Shown here in pieces: positions 18,293 through 53,054 of a DNA stretch of 64,000 nt (position 1 is its first letter; each line of letters opens with the position of its first letter). The position numbers were made by a program, and so were the translations under genes. Origin of the DNA: an uncultured Candidatus Saccharibacteria bacterium (GTDB taxonomy: Bacteria > Patescibacteriota > Minisyncoccia > Phycocordibacterales > XYD1-FULL-46-19). Under the pieces are notes generated by a model. That model was not told the DNA's origin. It worked only from the letters and a program-made list of their open reading frames with translations, and ran no database searches. Location: the NCBI GenBank assembly GCA_964510655.1, contig CAZEAY010000001.1, positions 33,421-97,420 of the forward strand, in the 5' to 3' direction.

Positions 18293-18300
18293 ATATTGCT

Positions 18301-18648
18301 TCCTATCTATAAGCCGAATTCTGTATCCGACCAAGGTCGGACGGCAGTTATTTATCTGGGCTGATTGTTGCCAATCAGCTCTAGCGACACGAATCGAAGG
18401 AAACCTTCGAAACACGGTCTTGCACTTAAGTAAGGGTTTAGCCGTTTCACTTCGAATGTTTCCATTCGAACTTACCCCGAAGGGTATTTTAAATCTTTCG
18501 ATTTAAAACGTCTCTGCTCGCACCTCGCGGATTGCTCCGGACGGGAATTACCCGCTACCTGGCTCCAAACTTGCGTTTGGAAGTGTTCGGACTTTCCTCT
18601 CTGACTTTCATCAGAGTAGCTGCCCAATAGGGAACTCCTTAATTATAA
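18301..18648 (-). ncRNA. rnpB: RNase P RNA (bacterial)
   Basis: The minus-strand reading contains the P4 core GAGGAAAGUCCGaac… and the 3' ACAGAAuuCGGCUUAuag element, with GC-rich stems in a region that lacks a credible ORF. Ends are approximate. Confidence 0.7.
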
Positions 18649-28383: not shown

Positions 28384-30654
28384 CTACGCGGTTATTTTCC
28401 GTTCTCCTTCTTTGGGGGTTGGCCAACTAGAGATGATTAGCGGATTTTCGTTTTCATCTTTAATCATACCCCAGATTTCTTCAGTGATGAAGGGGGTAAA
28501 AGGATGGAGAAGTTTGAGTATCGTTCTTAGAATGTAGATTAGGGTATATTGAGCTGATCTTTTATCGTTCTCATTTTCTCCTCTTAAACGATCCTTAGCT
28601 TCTTCAATGAAAGAGTTGGCAAAATTTTCCCAGACATAATGGTAGAGTTTTTCGGCCGCTAAATAATAACGGAAATTATCCATATCTTTGGTGATATCGA
28701 TAATCAAGTTGTCTAACTCGTCTAATCTTGTGCGGTCCTCTAAGCCAATTTCTTCCTCGTAAGTTCTATAATCAAAATTTTCAGTGTTAGTTAAAACAAA
28801 CCGAGCAATATTCCATAGTTTATTGGAAAAATGTTTATACCCGCGAATTTTATCTTCGGAAAGTTTAGCATCGTTGCCAGGACCAGTCCCAATAATTAAA
28901 GAAATGCGTACCGCATCGGTTCCGTACTTGGCGGTCATATCTAATGGATCGATAACATTGCCTAGCGATTTGCTCATTTTTCGTCCCTGCCCGTCACGAA
29001 CCAAACCATGGAGATAAACTGTTTTGAAAGGAATTTCTCCCAATAAATAATTGGTCATTAAAATCATTCGAGCGACCCAGAAAAACAAAATATCATAACC
29101 GGTTTCCATGACCGATAATGGGTGATAAGTCTGTAGATCCTCAGTTTTATTTGGCCAGCCTAGGGTGGAAAAAGACCATAGCCCGGAAGAAAACCAAGTG
29201 TCTAGGGTGTCGGAGTCTTGTTCCCATTTACCCGTTCCGACCTTGTCGGAATTAGGGACCATTTCTTCAGGAGCTTCTAGTCCGCAATAAATTTCTTCGC
29301 CTTTATACCAAACCGGAATGCGGTGTCCAAACCAAATCTGGCGAGAAATGCACCAATCGCGCAAGTTTTCTATCCAATGGTAATAAATCTTTTCAAAACG
29401 ATCGGGAATAATATTAATTTGGCGATTTTCTACTGATGCCAACATTAGTTTTTTGAGAGTTGTTTCTTCGCCTGATTTGATCCCAGTAATGTTTGAGTAT
29501 TCTAACTTAAATGGTTTGTTAACGGCAATAAACCATTGTAATTTTGGTAGCGGTTCTATTGTTCCACCTGTTCTCTCAGCGGTTGAAAGATTGATGGTTA
29601 TATCCTCCTCTTTTTCTAAAAGGTTTTGTTCTTTTAGCCAATTAACGATTATTTCTCTTGCTTCGGTAGTTTTTTTACCATTTAGATTAAGACTGTCTCC
29701 TTGAAAAAAGTCTTCATCTTTTATCGCCATTTTGGCGTACTCGTTTATTACGGGAATGATTGGTAAGTCGTGTCTTTGAGACATCTCCCAATCGATCTGA
29801 CTGTGAGCTGGTGTGACCCCTACGGCTCCAGTTCCAAAATTTTCGTCGACTGAATTATCGCCAATTATTTTGATGTGTAATTTTACGCCAGCAAAAACTA
29901 AGTCATATTCTTGACCGATATATTGTTTATATTTCCCCTCTGGGTGAACAGCGACGGCCGTGTCACCCAACTTAGTTTCTGGTCTGGTGGTGGCAATGGA
30001 AATAGGGAAGTCTGGACTATATTTGAAAGTATAAAATTTACCTTTGGTTTCTTCGTGGAGGACTTCGTCATCGGAAACAGTAGTTTGTCCTTTTGGGTCC
30101 CAGTTGATCACTCGATAACCACGATAGATCAGACCATCGTCGTACATTTTTTTGAAAGCAGTGCGGACAGCCAGATTCCTTTTATCATCCAGAGTGTAAG
30201 CTTCACGGGTCCAGTCAATTGAGGCCCCCATCTTTTTTACTTGATTGACTATCGTGTCGTGGCTATTTTGAGCGTATTCATTTACCCGACGAAGAAGTTC
30301 CTCTCGTCCCAAGTCATGTCTCCTCAATCCTTCTTCTTTATAGATAATTCCCTCCACCTTCGATTGGGTGGCAATGGCAGCATGATCTGTCCCCGGAACC
30401 CAGACTGTTTCTGCCCCAAGCATTCGGTTGTATCGCACCATAATATCTTCAATAGTGACAGTGGATGCATGGCCAATATGGAGAGTTCCCGTCACGTTTG
30501 GTGGCGGTAAAACCATAGAAAAGACCTGACCCTTTTTTTGGATTTCTTTGTTGCTTTTAGGTGAAAAATAATTTCCTTCTTGCCAAATATTGTAAATCCT
30601 CGCCTCTGTTTCTTCGGGTTCGTAAGGTTTGGTAAGTTTTTCCGGTAGTTTCAT
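28384..30654 (-). CDS. valS: valine--tRNA ligase (short form, lacking the C-terminal coiled coil)
   Basis: PPPNVTGTLHIGHA (HIGH) and KMSKS motifs. At 756 aa it is shorter than typical ValRS. Confidence 0.8.
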   Translation of the reverse strand: MKLPEKLTKPYEPEETEARIYNIWQEGNYFSPKSNKEIQKKGQVFSMVLPPPNVTGTLHIGHASTVTIEDIMVRYNRMLGAETVWVPGTDHAAIATQSKVEGIIYKEEGLRRHDLGREELLRRVNEYAQNSHDTIVNQVKKMGASIDWTREAYTLDDKRNLAVRTAFKKMYDDGLIYRGYRVINWDPKGQTTVSDDEVLHEETKGKFYTFKYSPDFPISIATTRPETKLGDTAVAVHPEGKYKQYIGQEYDLVFAGVKLHIKIIGDNSVDENFGTGAVGVTPAHSQIDWEMSQRHDLPIIPVINEYAKMAIKDEDFFQGDSLNLNGKKTTEAREIIVNWLKEQNLLEKEEDITINLSTAERTGGTIEPLPKLQWFIAVNKPFKLEYSNITGIKSGEETTLKKLMLASVENRQINIIPDRFEKIYYHWIENLRDWCISRQIWFGHRIPVWYKGEEIYCGLEAPEEMVPNSDKVGTGKWEQDSDTLDTWFSSGLWSFSTLGWPNKTEDLQTYHPLSVMETGYDILFFWVARMILMTNYLLGEIPFKTVYLHGLVRDGQGRKMSKSLGNVIDPLDMTAKYGTDAVRISLIIGTGPGNDAKLSEDKIRGYKHFSNKLWNIARFVLTNTENFDYRTYEEEIGLEDRTRLDELDNLIIDITKDMDNFRYYLAAEKLYHYVWENFANSFIEEAKDRLRGENENDKRSAQYTLIYILRTILKLLHPFTPFITEEIWGMIKDENENPLIISSWPTPKEGERKITA

Positions 30655-30706
30655 TGCTTCTTATCTTATCAAAAAGCCTTAACTTTTACCATATTTTTAC
30701 CTTTAT

Positions 30707-31909
30707 TTAGAGACTTAGATTGCCCTCCGCTTTTATCTTGGGGTTCACTTTAAAAGTTTTTATTAGTGAGTGAAAGTAGGCAGCCATGGCAATCATGGTG
30801 GCGTTGTCAGTCGAGAGTTTTATGTCTGGGAGGAGTAGGGCTGTTTCTGGATATTTTTCTTCTAGCTCATTTTCTAACCTTTTCTTAAGTTCGCTATTCG
30901 CAATTACTCCACCGCCAACAATTAGGGTTTTCGCTTTGTATTTTTTTACCGCGGCTAAAGTCTTTTGAATTAAAACATCAACGGCTGCGGTTTGAAACTC
31001 ATGAGCAATGGCTTGTTTGTCTTCAGTCGATAGTGGGGCTATTTTTTTTATTAAATAGAGAACAGCGGTCTTCAGTCCGGAAAAAGAAAAATCTAAGTCA
31101 CCACTGTTGTGCATTGGTCGTGGTAGAGTGTATTTAATTTTTTGGGTCCCAAGTAAATATTCGTTCGCTAGTTTACTTATTTCTGGTCCACCAGGATAAG
31201 GGAGTTCTAATAAGCGGGCTACTTTATCAAATGCTTCGCCTACGGCATCATCACGGGTCTTTCCTATTACTTTGTATTTTAGCCAGTTTTTTATTAAAAC
31301 AATTTCCGTGTGACCGCCTGAGACCAAAAGAGCAATGGCCGGGAATTGTATTTTACTTTTTATTTTTGAATTTAATTTATCATTTGTAATTTGAAATTTC
31401 TTTTCATCGCCTGCGAGTGATGAAAAGATGTGTCCTTCCATATGATTGGTTGGAATAAGTGGTTTATCCCACCACAATGATAAAGCTCGGGCAAAATTGA
31501 TCCCCACCCATAACGCTGGTTCTAATCCCGGGCCGTAAGTAACGGCAATGGCATCAATTTTTGGGATGGCTATTTTCGGCAGTGATTCTAAAAAGGCTAT
31601 CGATAAGTCTGGCTCTCTTTCTAGGGTGACAGCGATCTTTTTTATTAGTTTTTGATTAGAGACAGGTTTTTTGTTTTCCTTAAAAAATCCGGCTTGTTTT
31701 AAGGCTGTTTCTAATAGGGGAACAATGGCTTTACCGTGCTCTCTTTTCGCGATCATGGGCACTACTCCACCCCATTGTTTATGAATAGCTATTTGGGAAG
31801 CAATGGTATGGCTTAGGATTTTAAAAACAGGCTTGGTAAAACCGCCTTTAGCGTCTATAATACTAATAGCGGTTTCATCACAACTGGTTTCAATGGATAG
31901 TACCTTCAT
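30707..31909 (-). CDS. tsaD: tRNA N6-adenosine threonylcarbamoyltransferase TsaD (Kae1/Gcp family), carrying an insertion of about 35-40 aa
   Basis: N-terminal LSIETSCDETAISI, HGGVVP and VSGGH motifs. Confidence 0.8.
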   Translation of the reverse strand: MKVLSIETSCDETAISIIDAKGGFTKPVFKILSHTIASQIAIHKQWGGVVPMIAKREHGKAIVPLLETALKQAGFFKENKKPVSNQKLIKKIAVTLEREPDLSIAFLESLPKIAIPKIDAIAVTYGPGLEPALWVGINFARALSLWWDKPLIPTNHMEGHIFSSLAGDEKKFQITNDKLNSKIKSKIQFPAIALLVSGGHTEIVLIKNWLKYKVIGKTRDDAVGEAFDKVARLLELPYPGGPEISKLANEYLLGTQKIKYTLPRPMHNSGDLDFSFSGLKTAVLYLIKKIAPLSTEDKQAIAHEFQTAAVDVLIQKTLAAVKKYKAKTLIVGGGVIANSELKKRLENELEEKYPETALLLPDIKLSTDNATMIAMAAYFHSLIKTFKVNPKIKAEGNLSL

Positions 31910-32012
31910 GCGAATTTAATTTAAATTATGTTTTATATAGATAGGAAGTTAGAGAGATTGATTCTATCTATCGGAATGACTATATCAGAAGTGACAGTCT
32001 TTTTCCATCTTT

Positions 32013-32324
32013 TTGTTAAAAATGAAAAGAATATTAAAATATGATTTTCTCTTTTGGATATTATCATCCGCCTATTTGTTTTTGTTCGTTTTACCTTTTT
32101 CTCTTGGTGTTTTAGTTAAAATTATTATTGGTTATCTTTTCTATTTCCTTGTCAAGGAAATTTTTTATCAATATGGTGAAAGTATTTTTAATATCAGACA
32201 TCGTATCTCTGTTTTAACTCATCGAATATCCAATTCCCCACACAAGAAGACATTTTTTATTCATAATGGCACTACCCATCCAGAAAAGAAAAAGGATTAT
32301 GAAGATGTCAGTAAGTTTTTGTAG
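32013..32324 (+). CDS. hypothetical small membrane protein
   Basis: ORF with two hydrophobic helices; weak. Confidence 0.25.
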   Translation: MLKMKRILKYDFLFWILSSAYLFLFVLPFSLGVLVKIIIGYLFYFLVKEIFYQYGESIFNIRHRISVLTHRISNSPHKKTFFIHNGTTHPEKKKDYEDVSKFL

Positions 32325-32359
32325 AAAATAATTATTTTTACACAAGACCACTTTTTTAT

Positions 32360-32406
32360 TATTTATATAAAAACCGCCGACCCCTTTTTGTATGGGAATC
32401 GGCGGT
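32360..32406 (-). terminator. intrinsic terminator downstream of the beta-helix gene
   Basis: Hairpin ccgccga…tcggcgg, then a T-rich run on the minus strand. Confidence 0.65.
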
Positions 32407-32425
32407 GAAAGCCATTAGTGGTTTT

Positions 32426-34009
32426 TTATTCCACCAAAAACTCAGATATGGTGACAGGAACGGTCATCGTAAGAGATACCGACTGACCATCAATGCTTCC
32501 GCCAATAGAGGCTGTTCCAACGTTTCCGTCGGCGGAATAAAGAGCTGATGCACTCCCACCACTCATTGTGGTTGGTGTGGACCCGAAGCTTCCGATATCG
32601 GCTGTATAGGTCAACACGGAACCAGATGGAATTGTTCCGGCGATGCTGGTGTCAGTACCGCTTGAGTTCTCCTGTAAATGGAGACTAATGGTACTGGTCT
32701 CGTTTGGCTGAATGTCTGTTGGATTAGCAGTAATCGTCGCGACAATCCAAGGGTTGGTGTTGAAGCTGACTTCAGAAACACCACAGCCACCATTGCCCGG
32801 TCCAGCATTGCAACCCCACCAGTTGTTAGTGAGATCAACATTGTAGGTCCCAGCGGTCGGGTTACCGTCAAAACTTATAGCTGATTTTTCCGTGTGAGTA
32901 GTGTTACCCACGATTCGGTTGAAATTCGCTTGCAAGTTCAAGACTTGACCCGTTTCGCTCTCAATTTCCAAAGCTACACCACAATTAAGTAGCGAGTTGT
33001 TGTTGAAGACGACAGAGGAGCGGGAACTGAAGTACCCGTATACATCAGTACTTTGGTATAGACCAATGCTCCCACTGCGATTATTGAGATCCACCACATT
33101 ACCTGTGAGGGTAATGGTAGTGGGTGCTCCCTCTCCGGCCACCCAGAAGGCGACATCCTGTTGAGTAACAGAGTTTGTCGTGACTTGAACTGGTAAGTAT
33201 GGGGCATAGACCCAGATACCATAAGCTCCAGCCGTCCCGCTAGTAACTGTGTTTTCAGTCAATAAGTCAGCTGAACCGCCGCTACTGCCGTTGTTGTCGG
33301 TATGTATTCCGCTTCCGGAAAACCCGACTACGTTGTACTTGACCACTGTTCCTTTTGAGTGATTTGAGGCGATGCTGTCATTGCATCTGGTAACCGTATT
33401 GCTGGTCACCTGTCCGCTCCCGGTGAAATTGAAAATTCCGATGGAATTTCCGTCTCCGGAAACATTGTCGACAGTATTGTTTTGGAAGTTGAAACTTCCG
33501 CCAGTTGAGGCATAAATACCACGTAGGTAGATATTCCTCACTGTGCAATTCTGGACGGTCAGATTTTGGAAGACGCCCGTCGTGTGATCAGTGATGATCC
33601 CATTACGGGCGGCCAAATCAGCTCCATTGCGGACAATTCCACTTGGAGTAAGTGCTCCTGTTGTCTGACCATCCAGACAAACACCATCAATAGTGATGTC
33701 ATTAGCCTGGATCAGAAAAATGTTGCTGGCGGCCGGACACAATGAGCTTCCACTACAGGGGTTTGGACCTGAGATCGCGGGGTAGATCATTGTTGCCCCT
33801 GACCCGTCACCCAAAAAGGTGACTCCGGGGTTGCGGGCGATCACGTTTTCTTGCCAGTTACCAGCGGGGATATGCACCGTGTCTCCTGAGCCTGAAGCGT
33901 CAGAGCATTGTTGGATGGTTCCGTCTATTCCCGCTGTGCGGGTGGTTGCGTGAACCACCTCTCCACTCATCAGCACAATGCTGAGTATCAGTAACCAGAA
34001 TGCCCTCAT
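32426..34009 (-). CDS. secreted right-handed parallel beta-helix repeat protein (pectate-lyase/NosD-like fold); GC-rich
   Basis: Signal peptide MRAFWLLILSIVLMSGEVVHA. Many PbH1-like repeats (NCTVRNIYLRGIYAS, NTVDNVSGDGNSIGIF, NTVTRCNDSIASNHS…). Strong SD (GGAGGAATGTCATG). Composition clearly GC-richer than neighbours. Confidence 0.6.
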   Translation of the reverse strand: MRAFWLLILSIVLMSGEVVHATTRTAGIDGTIQQCSDASGSGDTVHIPAGNWQENVIARNPGVTFLGDGSGATMIYPAISGPNPCSGSSLCPAASNIFLIQANDITIDGVCLDGQTTGALTPSGIVRNGADLAARNGIITDHTTGVFQNLTVQNCTVRNIYLRGIYASTGGSFNFQNNTVDNVSGDGNSIGIFNFTGSGQVTSNTVTRCNDSIASNHSKGTVVKYNVVGFSGSGIHTDNNGSSGGSADLLTENTVTSGTAGAYGIWVYAPYLPVQVTTNSVTQQDVAFWVAGEGAPTTITLTGNVVDLNNRSGSIGLYQSTDVYGYFSSRSSVVFNNNSLLNCGVALEIESETGQVLNLQANFNRIVGNTTHTEKSAISFDGNPTAGTYNVDLTNNWWGCNAGPGNGGCGVSEVSFNTNPWIVATITANPTDIQPNETSTISLHLQENSSGTDTSIAGTIPSGSVLTYTADIGSFGSTPTTMSGGSASALYSADGNVGTASIGGSIDGQSVSLTMTVPVTISEFLVE

Positions 34010-34132
34010 GACATTCCTCCTCAGTAAATTTATACGTCACTCTGTGTATTAAAGAGCGATGCCTTTGGGAGAGTAACATTTTTTTATCAGTCTGTCAAAA
34101 AACAGCCTAAGTAATGGCTGTAATTTTTTATG

Positions 34133-34206
34133 TGGGCGATACAGGACTTGAACCTGTGACCTTGTCTACGTCAAAGACACGCTCTAGCCAACTGAGCTAA
34201 TCGCCC
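34133..34206 (-). tRNA. tRNA-Val (anticodon GAC), CCA not encoded
   Basis: The reverse complement reads GGGCGATTAGCTCAGTTGGCTAGAGCGTGTCTTTGACGTAGACAAGGTCACAGGTTCAAGTCCTGTATCGCCCA. Confidence 0.9.
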
Positions 34207-34433
34207 AATGTTTTAAATATTAGCAAAAAGTGAAGATTAGTAAAGTTTGATTTTTTTGATACAGCCTTGGATTTCGTCAAAAATAAATTTTCCAGTCCTG
34301 GACTCAGCGTGACCCCACCAAGAGTCTTTCCTTACAGGAACAGTACAGCTTTCCCATTTGTTCGTTTAGCTACTCACAAATACGGGAGAAGCTTTTCGAC
34401 TCCCGGACGCGAGCAAAGCAGTTTGCTCGCTTT

Positions 34434-34493
34434 GGGTCACAAATACAAAAATAGCCGGCCTTCCAGCCGGACTCATTTTTGTATTTGTGACCC
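34434..34493. repeat. long hairpin that includes the 3' acceptor end of tRNA-Glu
   Basis: gggtcacaaatacaaaaat-[agccggccttccagccggact]-catttttgtatttgtgaccc, with an inner GC hairpin. Two more hairpins follow at 34409-34430 and 34383-34405. Confidence 0.7.
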
Positions 34494-34559
34494 TACCGGG
34501 AGTCGAACCCGGGTTACCGGCTTGAAAAGCCGATGTCCTAACCATTAGACGATAGGGCC
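34488..34559 (-). tRNA. tRNA-Glu (anticodon TTC), CCA not encoded
   Basis: The reverse complement reads GGCCCTATCGTCTAATGGTTAGGACATCGGCTTTTCAAGCCGGTAACCCGGGTTCGACTCCCGGTAGGGTCA, close to E. coli tRNA-Glu. Confidence 0.85.
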
Positions 34560-34627
34560 TAATAAACAGCAATAATATAACATTTTTTTGAGAAAAAGCA
34601 AAAGTATGTTAGATTTAACCTGTTTAG

Positions 34628-34714
34628 GGAGGCGTGGCTGAGTGGTTGAAGGCACCGCATTCGAAACGCGGCAGGGGTTCATAGCCCCTCAGGGGTTCAA
34701 ATCCTCTCGCCTCC
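34628..34714 (+). tRNA. tRNA-Ser (anticodon CGA), class II, CCA not encoded
   Basis: Acceptor GGAGGCG/CGCCTCC. Anticodon loop TTCGAAA (the stem has one mismatch). Long variable arm AGGGGTTCATAGCCCCT. T-arm AGGGG-TTCAAAT-CCTCT. Confidence 0.75.
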
Positions 34715-34751
34715 GCAGGAGAAAATCGACAAAGTTGATTTTGAAATTTTT

Positions 34752-35348
34752 ATGGATCAAAAAACTATTGATACTTATAATCAACTAGCGAAAGAATACG
34801 ACGAAGAAACTGTCGATTTCTGGGAACGTTTTCCTCGGACTTTTTTTGATAAATTTGTTTCCTTGGCAAAAGGGAAGGTTTTGGATGTTGGTAGTGGTCC
34901 TGGTCGTGATGGTTTGATTTTAAAAGAAAGCGGACTTGACGTTGTTTGCCTAGATGCTTCTTCCGAGATGGTCAAACTGTCTTCGGCCAGAGGGTTGAAT
35001 TCTGTTTTGGGTGATTTTATGAAGTTGCCTTTTTCCGAAAATAGTTTTGATGCAATATGGGCATATACTTCTCTTTTACATATCTCTAAGTCTGAAGTAG
35101 ATAAAGCGTTAATAGAAATTTATCGAGTGTTAAAAACTAATGGTATTTTTGGCTTGGGTTTGATTGAAGGAGAAGGGGAGGAATATCGTGAAAGTTCTGG
35201 GGTGAATCAACCACGTTTGTTTAGTTTTTATACTAAAGAAGAGATCGAGAAATTATTAACTAAACATGGATTTACTATTTTATATTTCGAGGCTTTTAAA
35301 CCCAAAAGTCGCAATTATCTGAATTTCATTGTTCAGAAGATGGTTTGA
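34752..35348 (+). CDS. class I SAM-dependent methyltransferase
   Basis: Motif I VLDVGSGPGRDG, plus post I and motif II patterns. Confidence 0.75.
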   Translation: MDQKTIDTYNQLAKEYDEETVDFWERFPRTFFDKFVSLAKGKVLDVGSGPGRDGLILKESGLDVVCLDASSEMVKLSSARGLNSVLGDFMKLPFSENSFDAIWAYTSLLHISKSEVDKALIEIYRVLKTNGIFGLGLIEGEGEEYRESSGVNQPRLFSFYTKEEIEKLLTKHGFTILYFEAFKPKSRNYLNFIVQKMV

Positions 35349-44111: not shown

Positions 44112-44511
44112 AGTCTTCTAAAAAAATAAAAATAAAAAACTCCGGAGGTGGAAAGCAGGCTGGGTGCTTTCTCTCCGGAGTTTGTGGCTGTTAAGCCGGA
44201 TCGCGACAGTGTCGCATACTGTCTCCTTTCAGAGACTTGGGCTTGTCTGGACCATGGGGTTGGTTACCCAGATCTCTTTGGTCTCAGCCTCGCCGGCGTT
44301 GGGCGATCAGGCCCCGGGCGACGCCGAGCGGCCGTCGTTCGCGCTGCGGATCGTGGAAATGATGTAAATGTTGGAAAAGTGATCGGTCGTCGAACCGCGG
44401 TTGTGATTGGTAAGCATGGCTTACCCCCTTCGATTGAATGTACAAGTACCTAAAGGTACTTCTCATAGTGTAGCATACTATAGATTTTTGTCAACTACTG
44501 GATATTAAATC

Positions 44512-44553
44512 TTTCTAAAGAAAAAAGAGAACCCGGAACGATGGTCGTTCCGG
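44512..44553 (-). terminator. intrinsic terminator of the GC-rich minus-strand ORF
   Basis: Hairpin cccggaacga-tggt-cgttccggg, followed on the minus strand by a T-rich run. Confidence 0.7.
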
Positions 44554-44579
44554 GCTAGCATGGTAGATGCTGGGGGGGT

Positions 44580-45056
44580 CTATTCCCCAACATCTACGTA
44601 GGGGATTTTCTTCTTGGTGGCCGACATCAGGAAGGTTATCACGTATTTCTCAAATTGTCTGTCTACCCGCCTGGCCAAAAATAGCAGGTGTAGATGTCTG
44701 TCGGCATCGGTCCAAGTACGTGGGTGGTCCAGGAAGTAACCCTGGTGACTGGTAAGCAGGCGATCTTTGGTCATTTCGTTGGCCGTGTCACCGCCTGACC
44801 TTACTTCGCTGAGTCGTTCCAACATGTCGATCAGCATATTCAGTAGGTCCATTTGATCATGAGACCCTGTCAGCACATTCTCGTGCTTCATTGACAGCTC
44901 CAAGTAGTCAGCGGTCAGGTGTGCCAGAGAGAGATCATCATGCGAAACTTTGGTCTCTTCTTCGCCTGTAAACATCCGTAGTCGGTCTACCAGTTGTTGG
45001 GTGGTTACTGACAACATTTGCGAACCCATACCAGCTAGCACCTTCTTCATGACCAT
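44580..45056 (-). CDS. hypothetical protein, GC-rich
   Basis: 158-aa ORF with its own terminator, about 46-50% GC by eye; no motif recognised. Confidence 0.4.
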   Translation of the reverse strand: MVMKKVLAGMGSQMLSVTTQQLVDRLRMFTGEEETKVSHDDLSLAHLTADYLELSMKHENVLTGSHDQMDLLNMLIDMLERLSEVRSGGDTANEMTKDRLLTSHQGYFLDHPRTWTDADRHLHLLFLARRVDRQFEKYVITFLMSATKKKIPYVDVGE

Positions 45057-45162
45057 TTCTCCTTGTTTGCAGTGATAGTTGATCTATCCCGCTGTTAGTC
45101 TTTTTTCATAATAACAGATAAATTGATTGGTGTCAATTTGATGGAAAATTATCTGACAAATA

Positions 45163-45192
45163 GAAAAACCGCCCAAAAGGGCGGTTTTTCTA
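45163..45192. terminator. terminator downstream of rpsA
   Basis: aaaaaccgcccaaaagggcggttttt. Confidence 0.75.
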
Positions 45193-45223
45193 TTATTCTA
45201 CATTCTCTATATTCTTTAATCTT

Positions 45224-46673: not shown

Positions 46674-47837
46674 ATGAAATACACAGTTGGAAAGAAAATA
46701 AAAGCGACTAGTCCTCAAGGAGAGGCGTATTTGGCGTTTTTACCCGAACTAATAAATAAGGATTTTACTTGGGAGGATAAAAAAATAGATATACTGCTAG
46801 AGTCCGCTCGTGGCTGGCTTGGTGAACTAAATGCTTACTCGAAATTAATTCCTAACGTCGATTTTTTTATAGAGTCACATATCGCAAAAGAAGCAGAACA
46901 GTCTAGTCGAATTGAGGGGACAAAAACCACACTAGAAGAACTCTATCTTGATAAGGGTGATTTTGATGATCAGGAAAAAATAAATGATCAGGAAGAAGTG
47001 AAGAACTATATTAATGCATTAAATTATTCTATAAAAAATATTACAACTCCTGGCGAGATTCCACTTTCTACAAGACTTGTTTGTGGTGCTCATAAAATTT
47101 TACTTGATAATGTTCGAGGATATAAACGTCACCCTGGTGAGATAAGAAAAATACAAAATAAAATTGGAGGAAGCCAGGGTTCTCTTAAAGATGCTATCTT
47201 TATTCCTCCAACCCCAGAAATGGTTTCTGATCTTTTGAATGATTTGGAAAAATTTTGGCACAATAAAAATCTTGAAATTCCAGATCTGATAAAAGTCGCA
47301 TTGTCACATTATCAATTCGAAACAATACACCCATTTGAAGACGGAAATGGGAGAATCGGTCGTTTGATAATTATATTGCAACTCGTAACGTATGGGATGC
47401 TACAGAAACCAACATTGTACCTCTCTGATTATTTTGAGAAAAATAGATCGGCTTATTATGATGCTCTTTCTCGCGTACGAGAATCTGGGGACATGGAACA
47501 TTGGATAAAATTTTTCCTTGTTGGTGTCACTGAAACGGCCAAAAAAGGAAAAGAAACGTTAGAAAGTATCATTGATTTAAAAAAGAAATACGAAGATCTA
47601 ATCGATGGATATATGGGAGTTAAACAACAAAAACTTGGTAAGAAGTTGTTAAAATTCCTGTTTGCTAAGCCATTAGTAACAGCAAAAGATGTTGAGCAAA
47701 TGCTTGGAGTTACGAAACCAACAGCCACTGCTCTTGTAAACAAGCTGGCAGAAGCAAATATTTTAAAGGAGAGAACTGGATATAAAAGAAATCGAGTTTA
47801 TGCGCTCGATGAGTATTTAGCATTATTCAATAGTTAA
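46674..47837 (+). CDS. fic: Fic family protein (AMPylase-type), with an N-terminal domain and a C-terminal wHTH
   Basis: Canonical Fic motif HPFEDGNGRIGR and a candidate inhibitory SxxxEG motif (SSRIEG) in the N-terminal region. Confidence 0.85.
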   Translation: MKYTVGKKIKATSPQGEAYLAFLPELINKDFTWEDKKIDILLESARGWLGELNAYSKLIPNVDFFIESHIAKEAEQSSRIEGTKTTLEELYLDKGDFDDQEKINDQEEVKNYINALNYSIKNITTPGEIPLSTRLVCGAHKILLDNVRGYKRHPGEIRKIQNKIGGSQGSLKDAIFIPPTPEMVSDLLNDLEKFWHNKNLEIPDLIKVALSHYQFETIHPFEDGNGRIGRLIIILQLVTYGMLQKPTLYLSDYFEKNRSAYYDALSRVRESGDMEHWIKFFLVGVTETAKKGKETLESIIDLKKKYEDLIDGYMGVKQQKLGKKLLKFLFAKPLVTAKDVEQMLGVTKPTATALVNKLAEANILKERTGYKRNRVYALDEYLALFNS

Positions 47838-47845
47838 AATTATGT

Positions 47846-49603
47846 ATGGAAAATTTTAGTCATATAACATCAATGATCTGGAGTATAGCCGACATCTTGC
47901 GTGGCGGCTGGAAACAGCATGAATACCAGGACGTAATATTACCCTTGGTAGTTTTGAAACGTCTTGATTCTATCCTTGCAGACACTAAAGCTTCGGTCCT
48001 CGAGAAATACAACGAGTACAAAGGCAAAGTGAATGACCTTGACCCTATCTTGAAGAAGACCTCAGGCACAGCCTTCTACAATATCTCTGATTACGATTTC
48101 AAAACCATTCTTGGAGAACCAAAGCATCTCGCAAAGAACTTCAAGCAGTACATCAACGGGTACAGCAAGAATATCCAGGATATCTTTGAGAAGTTTGATT
48201 TCAGCAAACAGCTCGAGCGTCTCGAAGGTGGTGATCTCTTGTTTTACGTGATTCAGGAATTGAATAAAGTGGATTTGCACCCTTCAAAGGTAGATAACTA
48301 TCAAATGGGACACATCTTTGAAGAGCTTCTCCGAAAGTTTTCTGAAATGTCCAACGAAACCGCTGGAGAGCACTACACGCCAAGAGATGTGATCGGACTT
48401 ATGACCGAGATGCTCTTCTCGCCTGATAAGAAGGATCTCAAGAAACCTCATGTTATCAAAAAGATTTACGACCCTGCCTGTGGTACCGGCGGTATGCTTT
48501 CTGTTGCCAAGGATTACATTCTAGAAAACATAAACAAAGAAGCTGACATTTTCCTCTACGGACAGGAACTCAACTCGGTGACTTACGCTATGGCCAAGTC
48601 AGACATGCTTATCAAGGGCGATAACCCAGACCTTATTCGAGGCGGAGAAAAGGACCACTCAAAAGCAAGCACACTCGCTAACGATCAATTTTTTGCAGAA
48701 GTGTTTGATTATGGTCTATCAAATCCGCCCTACGGAGTTGATTGGAAGAAAGATAAAGATGCTGTTGAGCGTGAAGCCTCACGTGGATACGCTGGGCGAT
48801 TTGGTGCAGGCACTCCTCGCATCTCTGATGGACAGCTTTTATTCTTGCAGCACTTGATCTCAAAGATGAAGCCTGAGAAAGACGGTGGCTCACGTATAGC
48901 AATCGTCCACAACGGGTCCCCACTATTTACTGGTGATGTCGGTAGTGGAGAAAGCGAAATCCGAAGATGGATTCTTGAAAAGGATTTGCTCGAAGCAATC
49001 GTTGCATTGCCTGATCAGCTTTTCTATAACACAGGTATCAATACATATCTCTGGTTTGTCACCAACAGAAAATCAAAAGAACGAAAAGGTAAGGTCCAGC
49101 TCATTGATGCCCGTACCTTCTTTAAGAAGACTCGCAAAAGTCTTGGTAGCAAGCGACATGAGATTGATTCAGATCATAAAAAACAAATCTTGGATTTGTA
49201 TGAGAAGTTTGAGGAAAATGAATACTCAAAGATTTTCAAGACAACAGATTTTGCATACAGACAGATTCAAATTGAGCGTCCACTCAAGGATGAGAAGGGG
49301 AATTTTGTAAAAAACAAGAAAGGAGAAGTGGAGACGGATAAGTCACTTCGTGATCATGAAAATGTTCCATATGATATGGACATAAAAGAATACTTCAACA
49401 AAGAGGTAAAGCCATATGTGCCCGATGCATGGATCAATGAATCAGTCCGAGATCACAAAGACGGAAAGGTTGGCATTGTGGGCTATGAAATCCCATTCAC
49501 TCGCTACTTTTACAAATATGAGGCACCACGAAGCCTTGAAGAAATCGAGACTGATATAGAAAAGGTCGAGAACGAATTGCTCATTCTCCTAAAGCAACTT
49601 TAA
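47846..49603 (+). CDS. hsdM: type I restriction-modification system methyltransferase subunit HsdM
   Basis: N-terminal HsdM_N pattern and N6-MTase motifs (DPACGTGGML motif I, NPPYG motif IV). Confidence 0.9.
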   Translation: MENFSHITSMIWSIADILRGGWKQHEYQDVILPLVVLKRLDSILADTKASVLEKYNEYKGKVNDLDPILKKTSGTAFYNISDYDFKTILGEPKHLAKNFKQYINGYSKNIQDIFEKFDFSKQLERLEGGDLLFYVIQELNKVDLHPSKVDNYQMGHIFEELLRKFSEMSNETAGEHYTPRDVIGLMTEMLFSPDKKDLKKPHVIKKIYDPACGTGGMLSVAKDYILENINKEADIFLYGQELNSVTYAMAKSDMLIKGDNPDLIRGGEKDHSKASTLANDQFFAEVFDYGLSNPPYGVDWKKDKDAVEREASRGYAGRFGAGTPRISDGQLLFLQHLISKMKPEKDGGSRIAIVHNGSPLFTGDVGSGESEIRRWILEKDLLEAIVALPDQLFYNTGINTYLWFVTNRKSKERKGKVQLIDARTFFKKTRKSLGSKRHEIDSDHKKQILDLYEKFEENEYSKIFKTTDFAYRQIQIERPLKDEKGNFVKNKKGEVETDKSLRDHENVPYDMDIKEYFNKEVKPYVPDAWINESVRDHKDGKVGIVGYEIPFTRYFYKYEAPRSLEEIETDIEKVENELLILLKQL

Positions 49604-49608
49604 ATTAT

Positions 49609-50904
49609 ATGCAAACACTCAAGCTTACAAAAAAATATGAGAAATATCCTGAATATAAAGATTCGGGTGTTGAGTGGTTGGGTAATATTCCTGAAAATTG
49701 GAGTGTTTATAAAATGAAGACTTTAGGAAGTTTTTCAGCGAGCGGAATTGACAAAAAAATTAATGATAAAGAAATTCCAGTAAAGCTTCTTAATTACACT
49801 AATGTCTATGGAAATAAGGCGTTAACTATAGACGGTAAAACGGCTTTTGGAGAAACAACAACGACAAAGGACAAGATTACTGATTATTCAATAAAAAAAG
49901 GTGATATATATTTTACACCAAGCTCAGAGACAGAAAAGGATATTGGTGTATCTAGTGTTGCACTTGAGGATATCCCGGATGCGGTTTTTAGTTACCACCT
50001 AATAAGATTTAGGCCAAAAGCTGCAATTGATATTTCATTTAGTAAATATTTCACAAATAATTCGTGGGTTTTATCTCAGTTTTCATCGCTTTGCAATGGA
50101 ACAACAAGAATGGTGGTAAATAGAGATGATTTTAAAAATATAAACGTTGTTTTACCAACTAAAAAAGATCAAGAAAAAATTGCTGATTATCTTAATGAAA
50201 AAACTTCTGTTATTGATGAGATAATAGAAAAAAAAGAAAAGTTGATTGAGCTTTCGAAAGAAAAAAGAACCTCTGTAATCAATACCGTAATTTCTGAAGT
50301 AGTTGGAGAAAAAGGAAAACTAAAAAACTACATACAACTAAATCCTTCAAAAAAAGGAATTTCTGCAATTGGTCCTGAGGACGCGGTTTCCTTTGTTCCT
50401 ATGGAAGCAATCTCAGAACTTGGAGAACTACAAATACAAGAAAGAAAATACAAAGATGTAAGTAGTGGCTTCACCTACTTTAAAGATGGAGATGTTGTGC
50501 TTGCAAAAATAACTCCTTGCTATGAAAACGGTAAGGCGGGAGTAATTAGAGGACTGAAAAATGGATTTGGGTTTGGGACGACTGAATTCATGGTGCTTCG
50601 ACCAAGCAACAAGATTCTTGCTGATTACCTTTATTACGTAGTCTTTTCAGATAAATTCAGAAAGATGGGTGAAGTTGAGATGAGAGGAACAGCAGGGCAA
50701 AAACGAGTAACCTCATCATTTGCAATGAACTACGGACTATTTATTCCAGATATTAAAACTCAAGAAAAGATTGTGGTCGAGTTAAATAAAAAAATGAAGA
50801 TGTTTGATGTCGCTATAGCAAAAGTTGAAACTTCAATTTCATACCTCAAAGAATTTAAGACTTCCCTCATATCAAATGTTGTAACGGGAAAAATTAAAGT
50901 ATAA
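49609..50904 (+). CDS. hsdS: type I restriction-modification specificity subunit HsdS (two TRDs)
   Basis: Position in the operon, two repeated half-structures with conserved central and C-terminal coiled regions (…LIELSKEKRTSVI…, …KTSLISNVVTGKIKV), and very AT-rich composition. Confidence 0.8.
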   Translation: MQTLKLTKKYEKYPEYKDSGVEWLGNIPENWSVYKMKTLGSFSASGIDKKINDKEIPVKLLNYTNVYGNKALTIDGKTAFGETTTTKDKITDYSIKKGDIYFTPSSETEKDIGVSSVALEDIPDAVFSYHLIRFRPKAAIDISFSKYFTNNSWVLSQFSSLCNGTTRMVVNRDDFKNINVVLPTKKDQEKIADYLNEKTSVIDEIIEKKEKLIELSKEKRTSVINTVISEVVGEKGKLKNYIQLNPSKKGISAIGPEDAVSFVPMEAISELGELQIQERKYKDVSSGFTYFKDGDVVLAKITPCYENGKAGVIRGLKNGFGFGTTEFMVLRPSNKILADYLYYVVFSDKFRKMGEVEMRGTAGQKRVTSSFAMNYGLFIPDIKTQEKIVVELNKKMKMFDVAIAKVETSISYLKEFKTSLISNVVTGKIKV

Positions 50905-50908
50905 ATAT

Positions 50909-53050
50909 ATGATTAATAAAGTCTTAAAAATAAAGAATATAGGGAAATTCAAAAACCTTTGTTCAGTCAATGACGACCTGGCTTTTAAGACGTACACCCT
51001 GGTTTTTGGACCTAATAAACATGGAAAAACTACTTTTACATCAATACTCAAGTCTTTGAAGACGTCAGAGATTGATCACCTAATAGGACGAAAAACATTT
51101 GGATCAACAGCAAATGATAGCCAAGAGTATGAAATATTAATGAGTGATGGTTCTAAATATACATACAATTCTGGACTGAAAAATAAAGATATCGAAATAT
51201 TTGATAATGATTTCATAAATAGAAATGTTTTTTCTGGTGACAGTATTGATAAAAGCAATAGATCTAGTCTTTATAGCATCCTACTCGACAGTGCAAATGT
51301 AAAACTAAAGGAAGAGATAGACGAACTTGAGAGAAAACAAACAACTATCTCCACTGAAAAAACTGGAGCAAAAAATGCTATTGATAATTTTGATGACTTT
51401 ATAAAGTTAAATGCAACTGATGAAATAGCTGATATCGCAACAAAAATTGAAGAGAATAATAACAAGATTAAGCAATATAATAACCAAGCTCAATTAGACA
51501 TATTACGTAAGAAATCAAAGTTTCATTTTGATTTTGTGGCCTTTGAGGAGAAATTGAAACAAACCATTGATACCAAGCTTGAAAGTAAAATAAATGAACA
51601 CATAAAGAATAATCATAAAAACAATACAAAGAGTAAAGATTTTCTAAAAATTGGTACAGATTTGCTTGCCGATAGTAATGATTGTCCATTTTGTGGCCAA
51701 TCCTTAGACAACGTGACTGATCACATTACTGTCCTGAAGACTTTTTTCAGTGATACCTACAAAGAAATTCAAGAAAGTATTAATGAATCAATAAATCTTT
51801 TTAGTGAAATTGATATTGAAAAAGAGATCAATGCTTTCAAGGTTTGTGGATTAGAGTTTCCTAAATTAGATATTGTTAATTTGGGAGCTAACTTTTCAAC
51901 AGCGAAAGATAAAATAAAAGAGAAACAGACAGACTTATCAAAAGATATAAAAATCGGAGAAGATCAGGGTTATATCTCGTTTAAGAAAGAAATAATTAGC
52001 CTTAAGAAAGAAATTGATGATCTTACAACAAAAAGCCTAGATATAGTTGCTCTAGACAAAGAGACTTCGAGATTAAACCTCAACAAAGACAGATTTTCTG
52101 CTATTGGCATTGCAAAATTTAATACCTACAAAGAAAAAGAGAATGCATTTGAGGAAAACAAAAGAGTAATCAGTGAAAAAACCGATAAGTTAAAACTGGA
52201 CCTTAATACTCTTTTTAAAAAGCATCTTGAAAAGATAAATGATGTTCTTCGTATTTCAGGTGCAAATTTCAAACTAAAAAAACTCGATGCTAACACGAAC
52301 AGAAGCTTGAGAGATCATATGTGCGAATATAGTTTTGTTTTTGATAACACGCATGATGTAAGTGTAGAGGGTCAAGATAATACTCCCAATTTTAAAAATA
52401 CCTTAAGCGACTCTGATAAAAGAGTTCTCGCTTTCGCCTTTTTCGTAGCAAAAATAAAATCTGAAAACGATATCACTAATAAAATTATTGTATTAGATGA
52501 TCCTTTTACAAGTCTTGATGAAGACCGAAAAGACAGCATGATTAACCTTATTAAAGACCTTGGTTTTAAGCAGGTAATAATCTTGTCACATAGTAAAAGG
52601 TTTGTGGGTAGATGCTTTGAGTTGTTTCCAAGAGATGTAATGAAAACTCTAAAATTGCACTGCTCTGCAGCAAGCGGATCGCTTTTTGAGGTTATGGATG
52701 TCAAAAAAGAAATACTAGATACTGACATTGAAAAAGATCTTGCTTATATAAGAAATTCTATACACAAAAACATTAACCTAAAAGAAGCATGTCAAAAAGT
52801 TAGACTCTGCATTGAACAAATATTGAAAGAAAAATATTCAGATTTTATAAAGCCAGAAAATCTTGCAGGTAATGCATCAATTGGTACCTTTTTATTTGAT
52901 ATCGGAGCTAGGTGTCCAGCAAAAAAAGATATAGAAGGTGGGTATTGGCATGATGATCATCACGCACAAAATCCAACCAATACAGCTGATGACACGGAAA
53001 GGTTGAATAAACTTAAATACTTTATAGAAACCATTTTACCCACAATATAA
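50909..53050 (+). CDS. RloC/PrrC-like ABC-type ATPase with a coiled coil and CxxC zinc hook (AAA_13-like), embedded in the type I R-M operon; putative anticodon nuclease
   Basis: Walker A VFGPNKHGKTT. Long coiled-coil middle region carrying CPFCGQ. ABC signature-like LSDSDKR, Walker B IIVLDDPFTSLD and H-loop ILSHS. About 150-aa C-terminal domain with Rx3E (RLCIEQ) and HDDHH. Sits between hsdS and hsdR, as prrC and rloC do. Confidence 0.5.
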   Translation: MINKVLKIKNIGKFKNLCSVNDDLAFKTYTLVFGPNKHGKTTFTSILKSLKTSEIDHLIGRKTFGSTANDSQEYEILMSDGSKYTYNSGLKNKDIEIFDNDFINRNVFSGDSIDKSNRSSLYSILLDSANVKLKEEIDELERKQTTISTEKTGAKNAIDNFDDFIKLNATDEIADIATKIEENNNKIKQYNNQAQLDILRKKSKFHFDFVAFEEKLKQTIDTKLESKINEHIKNNHKNNTKSKDFLKIGTDLLADSNDCPFCGQSLDNVTDHITVLKTFFSDTYKEIQESINESINLFSEIDIEKEINAFKVCGLEFPKLDIVNLGANFSTAKDKIKEKQTDLSKDIKIGEDQGYISFKKEIISLKKEIDDLTTKSLDIVALDKETSRLNLNKDRFSAIGIAKFNTYKEKENAFEENKRVISEKTDKLKLDLNTLFKKHLEKINDVLRISGANFKLKKLDANTNRSLRDHMCEYSFVFDNTHDVSVEGQDNTPNFKNTLSDSDKRVLAFAFFVAKIKSENDITNKIIVLDDPFTSLDEDRKDSMINLIKDLGFKQVIILSHSKRFVGRCFELFPRDVMKTLKLHCSAASGSLFEVMDVKKEILDTDIEKDLAYIRNSIHKNINLKEACQKVRLCIEQILKEKYSDFIKPENLAGNASIGTFLFDIGARCPAKKDIEGGYWHDDHHAQNPTNTADDTERLNKLKYFIETILPTI

Positions 53051-53054
53051 ACAT

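Follow-up and report, generated by a model that had tools for sequence, protein, structure and literature searches.

An ancient gene for a predicted secreted beta-helix protein beside tRNA-Val in a Paceibacteria lineage, and its uncharacterised protein subfamily

The stretch of DNA analysed here, 64,000 nucleotides (nt) in length and called the window below, carries on its minus strand a gene for a predicted secreted protein with a right-handed parallel beta-helix, located next to a tRNA-Val(GAC) gene. Our analysis identifies this beta-helix gene as an old accessory gene of a Paceibacteria clade and its product as a member of an uncharacterised secreted beta-helix subfamily. Taken as a whole, the reading that we favour, and consider moderately probable, is that of an exported glycan-acting beta-helix enzyme whose gene was gained laterally long ago and is now fixed, independently transcribed and held under strong purifying selection. 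The gene and the parts of its product are the following.

32426..34009, minus strand: beta-helix gene, a complete coding sequence with an ATG start, 527 amino acids
33947..34009, minus strand: Sec-type signal peptide, residues 1-21, predicted cleavage after VHA
32780..33943, minus strand: right-handed parallel beta-helix domain, residues ~23-410, supported by Pfam Beta_helix and the structural model
32456..32752, minus strand: C-terminal immunoglobulin (Ig)-like beta-sandwich, residues ~420-518, 6-7 strands in the model at a predicted local distance difference test score (pLDDT) of 60-77

The Pfam family Beta_helix (PF13229) matched the protein at 31 bits against a cut-off of 25.9, and an AlphaFold model built on 55 homologues (pLDDT 86.6, predicted template modelling score 0.83) shows a regular right-handed helix of stacked three-stranded coils from residue ~23 to ~405-410, about 390 residues in all. 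Within this domain lie the family motifs ADLAARNGII, NIYLRGIYAS, NDSIASN, GSGIHTDNNG and NNWWGC..GP. The C-terminus is a ~100-residue Ig-like sandwich ending ...TISEFLVE, which weakly matches Pfam Invasin_D3 (invasin domain 3) over its full length (E 0.046). The signal peptide was called by sequence inspection and hydrophobicity: the N-terminus, MRAFWLLILSIVLMSGEVVHA before the cleavage site and TT after it, starts with a charged n-region, followed by a hydrophobic core of 12 residues (mean Kyte-Doolittle 2.77) and then a V-H-A site. The model places a hydrophobic helix at residues 2-13, with low pLDDT, and homologues carry similar hydrophobic N-terminal leaders. Two cysteine pairs, the near-invariant C85/C91 and C400/C409 in the NWWGC..GP...C motif, the cysteines of which align in most sequences, are candidate disulfides, and together with the leader peptide they would fit an exported protein. 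An earlier, preliminary description of this DNA had proposed a 527-residue signal-peptide ORF (open reading frame) for a secreted parallel beta-helix protein with Gly/Ser/Thr-rich stretches; each of these points is borne out, the protein consisting of Gly 12.5%, Thr 11.6% and Ser 11.2%, next to Asn 9.1% and as little as 0.6% Lys. An identical copy of the protein exists in public data (P0001).

To delimit the family, 1.84 billion cluster representatives were searched, which yielded 1343 matching clusters (50% identity) at E <= 1e-3, of which 320 reach E <= 1e-30. Many of the matches are modules of multidomain proteins of 600-5000 amino acids, some with several copies, and about a dozen extend over the Ig-like domain, which is common to the sister-lineage orthologue P0002, the more distant homologue P0004 and about a dozen further family members. 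Other homologues stand alone at ~430 amino acids, and many bear the pipeline label "NosD". Some homologues end in secretion and sorting tails of the type IX secretion system (T9SS); these tails and the large multidomain proteins point to an extracellular context for the family. Of the 55 sequences aligned, the sister orthologue is 81% identical to the query and all others 35-45%; the alignment has 28 invariant columns and a further 74 that are near-invariant. The conserved polar residues are D131, R135, Y161, R163, Y166, D211, H236, D238, D248 and Y263, and by the strand pattern of the model nearly all of them map to PB1 strands in six successive coils, on one face of the helix; D131, D211, D238, R135 and R163 are among those on PB1 strands. 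In characterised beta-helix enzymes, the PB1 face forms the substrate cleft. The family is a strongly conserved, uncharacterised branch of the pectin-lyase-fold (PbH1) superfamily.

Comparison of the model with solved folds placed the AlgE4 epimerase first (30.2), followed by an alginate epimerase/lyase (29.4), a GH87 glucanase (29.3) and NosD (29.0); next came Vag8, phage capsule depolymerases, PL6 lyases, GH28 enzymes and the adhesin PfbA. The fold is clear, and it leaves the chemistry unfixed. A phmmer search with the protein found no meaningful match in the PDB, no PHROGs family was found at E <= 0.01, and no Pec_lyase_C or other polysaccharide lyase Pfam family (PL1 and similar pectate lyases) matched at E <= 1. 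A recurrent partner gene was found in none of seven distinct homologue contexts (L001, L002, L085, L086, L171, L172 and L173), and the neighbourhoods of five stand-alone homologues showed no conserved partner, MFS and HxlR genes recurring in two probably related genomes only. Our literature search found no description of this beta-helix family in Patescibacteria.

We hypothesize that the protein is soluble and exported by its Sec signal peptide, with a ~390-residue beta-helix and one Ig-like domain, and that an extracellular polysaccharide would be bound along the PB1 face and then cleaved or modified. The Ig-like domain could help to bind the substrate or the cell surface, and if the organism is an episymbiont, a glycan of the host or of the matrix would serve as the substrate. 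The polar residues conserved on one modelled face speak for an enzyme or for a protein that binds glycans specifically, and the PB1 face may represent a specific glycan-binding, probably catalytic site. The principal competing view of function, in which the beta-helix is a non-catalytic adhesin or structural spacer for host-cell attachment, as in PfbA or Vag8, draws on the Ig-like C-terminal domain and on the occurrence of family modules, some of them multi-copy, within giant multidomain proteins. We judge it rather improbable: adhesin beta-helices are usually poorly conserved, whereas in this family 28 columns do not vary between phyla, and those charged and aromatic residues that are conserved gather on one face. 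Moreover, many family members are stand-alone 430-residue proteins devoid of anchoring or repeat domains, and the 527-residue sequence itself contains no cell-wall anchor, sortase motif, translocator barrel, transmembrane segment or lipobox. A NosD-type accessory protein, acting beside an ABC transporter in the maturation of a copper enzyme, is scarcely credible, even though JGI and NCBI label many homologues "NosD" on weak PF05048 matches and the TIGR04247 alignment spans residues 33-430. The cut-off of TIGR04247 is 300 bits, and the protein scores 30. A search of PDB sequences with the family profile does not retrieve NosD at E <= 1, and neither the window nor the seven homologue contexts contain nosZ, nosF, nosY or nosL beside the gene; the host, moreover, belongs to the Patescibacteria, a group that is not known to carry out respiratory denitrification. 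We therefore regard the "NosD" labels as unsupported. The enzymatic reading is weighed below together with the origin of the gene, for which its surroundings are needed.

34132-34206, minus strand: tRNA-Val(GAC), found by ARAGORN and Rfam, the upstream limit of the slot
34102-34121, minus strand: hairpin terminator of tRNA-Val itself, free energy (dG) -10.7 kcal/mol, z-score (z) -4.06
34070..34098, minus strand: promoter-like site TTGACA, 17-nt spacer, TACTCT, read from the sequence
34015..34020, minus strand: Shine-Dalgarno site GGAGGA, 5 nt before the ATG, read from the sequence
32368..32406, minus strand: intrinsic terminator of the beta-helix gene, a 12-bp stem (32373-32406) followed by a U-tract (U5)
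32013..32324, plus strand: small AT-rich ORF for a putative membrane protein of 103 amino acids, converging on the beta-helix gene
30707..31909, minus strand: tsaD, the downstream limit of the slot; its L001 orthologue has Pfam TsaD and 80% amino-acid identity

The tRNA-Val(GAC) gene lies on the same strand as the beta-helix gene, 122 nt from its ATG. The terminator of the beta-helix gene folds at dG -21.7 kcal/mol (z -4.47; 0 of 200 shuffles were equally stable), and the TTGACA-17-TACTCT site, the putative promoter, has an aligned counterpart, TTGACA-17-TATTAT, in front of the L001 orthologue, although it scores below the threshold of a consensus scanner. Because it has its own promoter-like site and downstream terminator, the beta-helix gene looks like an independent transcription unit. 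The tRNA-Val neighbour and the strong Shine-Dalgarno site and terminator had been named in the preliminary description, and all are present.

The one close relative found is L001, a 4.5-kilobase (kb) contig of a sister lineage, in which the beta-helix gene (P0002), the small ORF, tsaD and valS follow each other in the same synteny as in the window. Amino-acid identity is 82-83% for the beta-helix protein, 80-81% for TsaD and 90% for the N-terminus of ValS, and at the nucleotide level the beta-helix block and the tsaD-valS block are each ~75% identical. Four-fold degenerate sites are 40% identical in the beta-helix gene and 39% in tsaD (chance expectation, 25%). The ratio of nonsynonymous to synonymous substitution rates (dN/dS) is 0.059 for the beta-helix gene against 0.064 for tsaD, with dS ~1.9, which is saturated, so that purifying selection on the beta-helix gene is as strong as that on tsaD. 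Since the orthologue shares the synteny and has diverged as tsaD has, the gene predates the split of the two lineages; and since synonymous sites between them are saturated, the insertion is old. The small ORF, which shares the 2.2-kb insert between tRNA-Val and tsaD with the beta-helix gene, has a 93-amino-acid counterpart at the same position in L001 (~39-40% amino-acid identity, dN/dS 0.25). It has no Pfam family and no counterpart in the 79 other tsaD loci, and is best described as lineage-specific, encoding a putative membrane protein.

The beta-helix gene has a GC content of 0.497 and a third-position GC content (GC3) of 0.508, compared with a window mean GC of 0.391 and a typical gene GC3 of ~0.35. 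In a 200-nt GC profile, a plateau of 0.45-0.565 coincides with the limits of the ORF, and the remainder of the tRNA-Val to tsaD interval is strongly AT-rich (GC 0.24-0.31). The amino-acid composition and the synonymous codon usage of the window predict a GC of 0.443; the synonymous remainder amounts to a GC3 0.162 above expectation (z = 2.8 versus the other window genes). The GC deviance claimed in the preliminary description therefore stands when computed, and raised GC3 is also seen in hsdM, rpsA, the signal peptidase gene and a 158-amino-acid ORF of the window. The codon shift is largest in NNC over NNU codons, and codon deviations of the beta-helix gene correlate with those of hsdM (r 0.63), rpsA (r 0.55) and valS (r 0.47). 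A GC3 excess confined to C-ending codons, as translational selection would lead one to expect, was considered and set aside, G-ending codons being raised too, both relative to the same-strand neighbours tsaD and valS and in the orthologue. Because of the correlation with rpsA, hsdM and valS and the raised G-ending codons, composition alone cannot tell a foreign origin from a gene-specific codon preference. In L001, GC3 of the orthologue is 0.55 versus 0.35-0.40 in its neighbours. With each lineage having accumulated about one substitution per synonymous site, a signature passively inherited from the donor should by now have largely decayed; GC3 has persisted despite this dS, and therefore either the donor was very GC-rich or codon usage is under selection.

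To analyze the distribution of the gene, 79 tsaD relatives were retrieved from species-representative genomes, the best being 58% identical. All 79 belong to Patescibacteria, in agreement with the small-genome host suggested by the preliminary description, here of the Paceibacteria type. None of the 79 loci contains a beta-helix homologue within 10 kb of tsaD; the gene is present in one close relative (L001) and absent at the locus in 79 distant ones, and no intermediate relatives were found. Of the 79 loci, 35 have a tRNA-Val(GAC) gene upstream of tsaD, and 24 have it on the strand of tsaD; the distance is <= 10 nt in 5 loci and <= 23 nt in 7, with gaps of up to 6.9 kb elsewhere; the larger gaps hold unrelated, mostly housekeeping-looking genes, as judged from ORF N-termini. 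The adjacency of tRNA-Val to tsaD is ancestral, and therefore anything inserted upstream of tsaD adjoins tRNA-Val. More broadly, the order tRNA-Ser(CGA), tRNA-Glu(UUC), tRNA-Val(GAC), tsaD, valS, tRNA-Phe, tRNA-Arg(CCU), tRNA-Gly(CCC) recurs across distant Paceibacteria (window 25470-34716; loci L007-L084), varied by local inversions and spacer lengths, with valS in 65 of 80 tsaD loci.

Homologues of the beta-helix protein that are not orthologues are <= 55% identical to it. Those that can be placed belong to Chloroflexota, Anaerolineae, Zixibacteria and Gemmatales, or are modules on contigs with T9SS-type genes, and every named protein among the best 120 homologues comes from outside Patescibacteria. 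A scan of JGI metagenome contigs revealed no close orthologue, the best match being 36% identical. The only other homologue traced to Paceibacteria is P0004 (L002:10001-12731), in a lineage assigned through named PNPase relatives. It is 41% identical, has the same layout of beta-helix and Ig-like domain followed by a Pro/Thr-rich tail, and is not GC-deviant at its locus, where it lies between rpsO and a tyrosine recombinase gene (phage-integrase family), directly upstream of the latter. In a neighbor-joining tree, it is not the nearest relative of the window protein, with weak bootstrap.

On this evidence, we propose that the beta-helix gene and the small membrane ORF would have been inserted between tRNA-Val(GAC) and tsaD in the ancestor of a small Paceibacteria clade, most probably by an ancient lateral transfer. 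We consider it fairly unlikely that the gene is instead native and vertically inherited in Paceibacteria, its GC arising from composition and expression-linked codon selection and its patchiness from repeated loss in a streamlining phylum. Such a history would agree with a same-locus orthologue that co-diverges with tsaD, with a GC of 0.443 predicted from amino-acid composition alone, with a preference for C-ending codons like that of rpsA, with a GC anomaly that persists at dS ~1.9, and with the presence of the same architecture, free of the anomaly, in a second Paceibacteria lineage. It fits poorly with the absence of the gene near tsaD in 79 related loci, the lack of a named Patescibacteria protein among the best 120 homologues and of a close orthologue in the metagenome contigs, and the rise in G-ending codons over same-strand neighbours. 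Furthermore, the window copy and P0004 occupy unrelated loci at 41% identity, and neither is as close to the other as to multidomain proteins that are not orthologues, some of them encoded on a contig with T9SS-type genes. The horizontal acquisition claimed in the preliminary description is thus upheld insofar as lateral gain is favoured (GC3 z = 2.8, 0 of 79 loci, named homologues outside Patescibacteria) and corrected as to age, the gain not being recent. That description had weighed against itself the joint finding of core-like composition and same-locus orthologues; an orthologue does occupy the same locus in L001 (82% identity), whereas the composition is deviant.

The same description had pointed to tRNA-Val as a typical integration target, and the gene could in principle be recent island cargo, delivered by site-specific integration into tRNA-Val: it lies 122 nt from the tRNA, its GC is deviant, and the tRNA-Val 3' end is duplicated in L001. 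This now appears very improbable, and the suggestion does not hold. No integrase or transposase is encoded within ~11 kb, and no integrase family was detected among the genes between ~21 and 46 kb of the window. The genes within ~11 kb, MurJ, LepA, Hsp20, PrsW, ValRS, TsaD, a methyltransferase, ZIP, FtsZ, FtsA, YbeY and HisRS, are all housekeeping, and a thioredoxin-reductase-like ORF, read from the sequence only, also lies in this range. The tRNA-Val 3' end, CCTGTATCGCCCAC, occurs as a single copy in the window with <= 2 mismatches allowed, and 31700-34800 holds no repeat family of this kind. In L001:1-265 the 3' end does occur twice, at 9-25 and 248-265 (17 nt identical), but the repeats bracket just 222 nt upstream of the gene, which hold a half-copy of a tRNA-trailing RNA element (model positions 46-117) described below, with the beta-helix gene outside; this duplicate was examined as an attachment (att) scar and rejected as part of the element. 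Saturation of synonymous sites between the two lineages likewise speaks for an old insertion. Because there is neither an integrase nor an att repeat, the tRNA-Val adjacency is incidental. The case calls for caution, as GC deviation together with tRNA adjacency does not here amount to a recent island.

Several observations weigh against the favoured combination of an exported glycan-acting enzyme and an old lateral gain. The family profile matches solved proteins only through a generic N-terminal cap that is shared with pectinesterases, and the candidate catalytic residues are placed by the strand pattern of the model. About half of the GC excess is due to amino-acid composition, the codon correlation with rpsA and valS means that expression-linked selection might mimic a foreign signature, and the GC3 anomaly has outlived saturating synonymous divergence. 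The relatives with an empty slot are distant (tsaD <= 58% identical); their slots hold housekeeping-looking genes, so that the variability is partly ordinary rearrangement. The neighbor-joining placement of the gene gives weak bootstrap support to any sister group.

Patescibacteria depend on other cells, and most of the effectors that they secrete are poorly understood. A solitary beta-helix gene with a predicted exported product that is constrained like an essential tRNA-modification gene is a reasonable candidate for a host- or matrix-interaction factor, and it provides a handle on a widespread, conserved beta-helix family mislabelled as NosD in databases. A bolder and decidedly tentative version of this idea is that the protein serves an episymbiotic Paceibacteria cell as a host-directed, tailspike-like depolymerase, acquired in the distant past from a free-living member of another phylum and maintained by purifying selection of housekeeping grade, which would open or bind host envelope polysaccharide for attachment or feeding. 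If true, this would make the uncharacterised family, which comprises 320 or more clusters at 50% identity, a new family of carbohydrate-active enzymes.

The RNA element mentioned above, which is unannotated, is present in the window in two copies and recurs elsewhere; its locations include the following.

34307-34442, minus strand: RNA element of ~136 nt, in the 280-nt spacer between tRNA-Glu and tRNA-Val
26272-26393, plus strand: second window copy, 18 nt after tRNA-Arg
L041:9526-9663, L064:4860-4985, L009:6165-6316 and L048:15578-15728: copies in other loci

A search of Rfam 15 gave no match to the element, which is ~80% conserved in genomes whose TsaD proteins are only ~50% identical. A covariance model detected 31 copies in 1.09 Mb of Paceibacteria DNA; in 17 of these, the first nucleotide lies <= 60 nt downstream of a tRNA gene on the same strand (Glu, Arg, Gly, Ser or Val). 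In an alignment fitted to the model, and thereby biased toward the structure, 92% of the cells are paired, versus 60% in shuffles and 36-47% in slid controls, and compensatory changes occur in 40 of 40 pairs. All 17 tRNA-adjacent copies end with a 9-20-nt copy of the upstream tRNA 3' end, from T-loop/T-stem to discriminator, and 12 of them begin with its antisense; the exact 5' strand of the T-stem at the same position, followed by ARUCGAA, is seen in 6 of the 14 copies with a resolvable tRNA layout. Because its copies carry the upstream tRNA 3' end, the element explains the duplicated tRNA-Val 3' end in L001. It looks like a tRNA-derived scaffold, in which a conserved hairpin and a ~85-nt core replace the T-loop, and it might act as an RNA in processing or regulation, mimic a tRNA, or be a miniature mobile element that targets tRNA genes. 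We found no description of it in the literature, and viral contigs scanned with a 17-mer of the element returned two chance matches that had neither a structure match nor a tRNA. The element is a candidate for a new RNA class or a miniature tRNA-targeting element, and may matter more than the beta-helix gene. At 34434-34493, a perfect 19-nt inverted repeat encloses a GC hairpin terminator and links the tRNA-Glu 3' end and trailer to the 5' end of the RNA element; judging by the sequence, its pairing would exclude the closing helix of the element and could act as a structural switch.

Three further regions of the window were recorded. Between pth and rpsA, ~1.1 kb (44112-45223) is GC-rich, up to 0.64 at 44301-44400, with only a doubtful 158-amino-acid ORF that belongs to no family, and Rfam gives no match there; within 44150-44480 the minus strand is more stably folded than its shuffles (z -2.9), whereas the plus strand is not (z -1.3), and the region may hold a structured RNA so far unrecognised or the remains of a gene. 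A block at 46674-56021 comprises Fic/DOC, the type I restriction-modification proteins HsdM, HsdS and HsdR, and an AAA_13 ATPase. Its GC3 alternates, raised in HsdM (+0.12) and HsdR (+0.06) and lowered in Fic, HsdS and AAA_13, and it is a candidate for a laterally acquired defence island more typical than the beta-helix gene. A class A bacterial RNase P RNA is encoded at 18294-18635 on the minus strand (123.6 bits).

Among known systems, the closest in fold are the mannuronan C5-epimerases and alginate epimerase/lyases (AlgE4 A-module, 2PYG; 8JA4; AlgG, 4NK8), with which the protein shares only 14-15% identity. The catalytic signature of mannuronan C5-epimerases is DPH(D/E); here this is absent, and the corresponding conserved strand reads GIHTDN (GIHTDNNG). 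Compared with AlgE, the protein is without RTX R-modules, and no sequence-profile link was found. GH87 alpha-1,3-glucanases, PL6 alginate/chondroitin lyases, GH28 polygalacturonases, RbmB and phage tailspike depolymerases gave no Pfam, PHROG or PDB sequence match; the likeness to tailspike depolymerases is at the fold level only, the protein lacking any domain for trimerisation or particle binding. NosD of the NosDFY complex (PDB 7O0Y; TIGR04247 / PF05048) is approached at one tenth of the cut-off, and neither its ABC partner nor nosZ is found in the window or the seven homologue contexts. Autotransporters and cell-anchored adhesins differ by their translocator barrel, sortase motif or anchor, all absent from the window protein. 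With tRNA-associated genomic islands, the locus shares a tRNA neighbour, a deviant composition and absence from distant relatives; in contrast to them, it consists of a single gene with a small ORF, free of integrase and att repeats, and is ancient and fixed.

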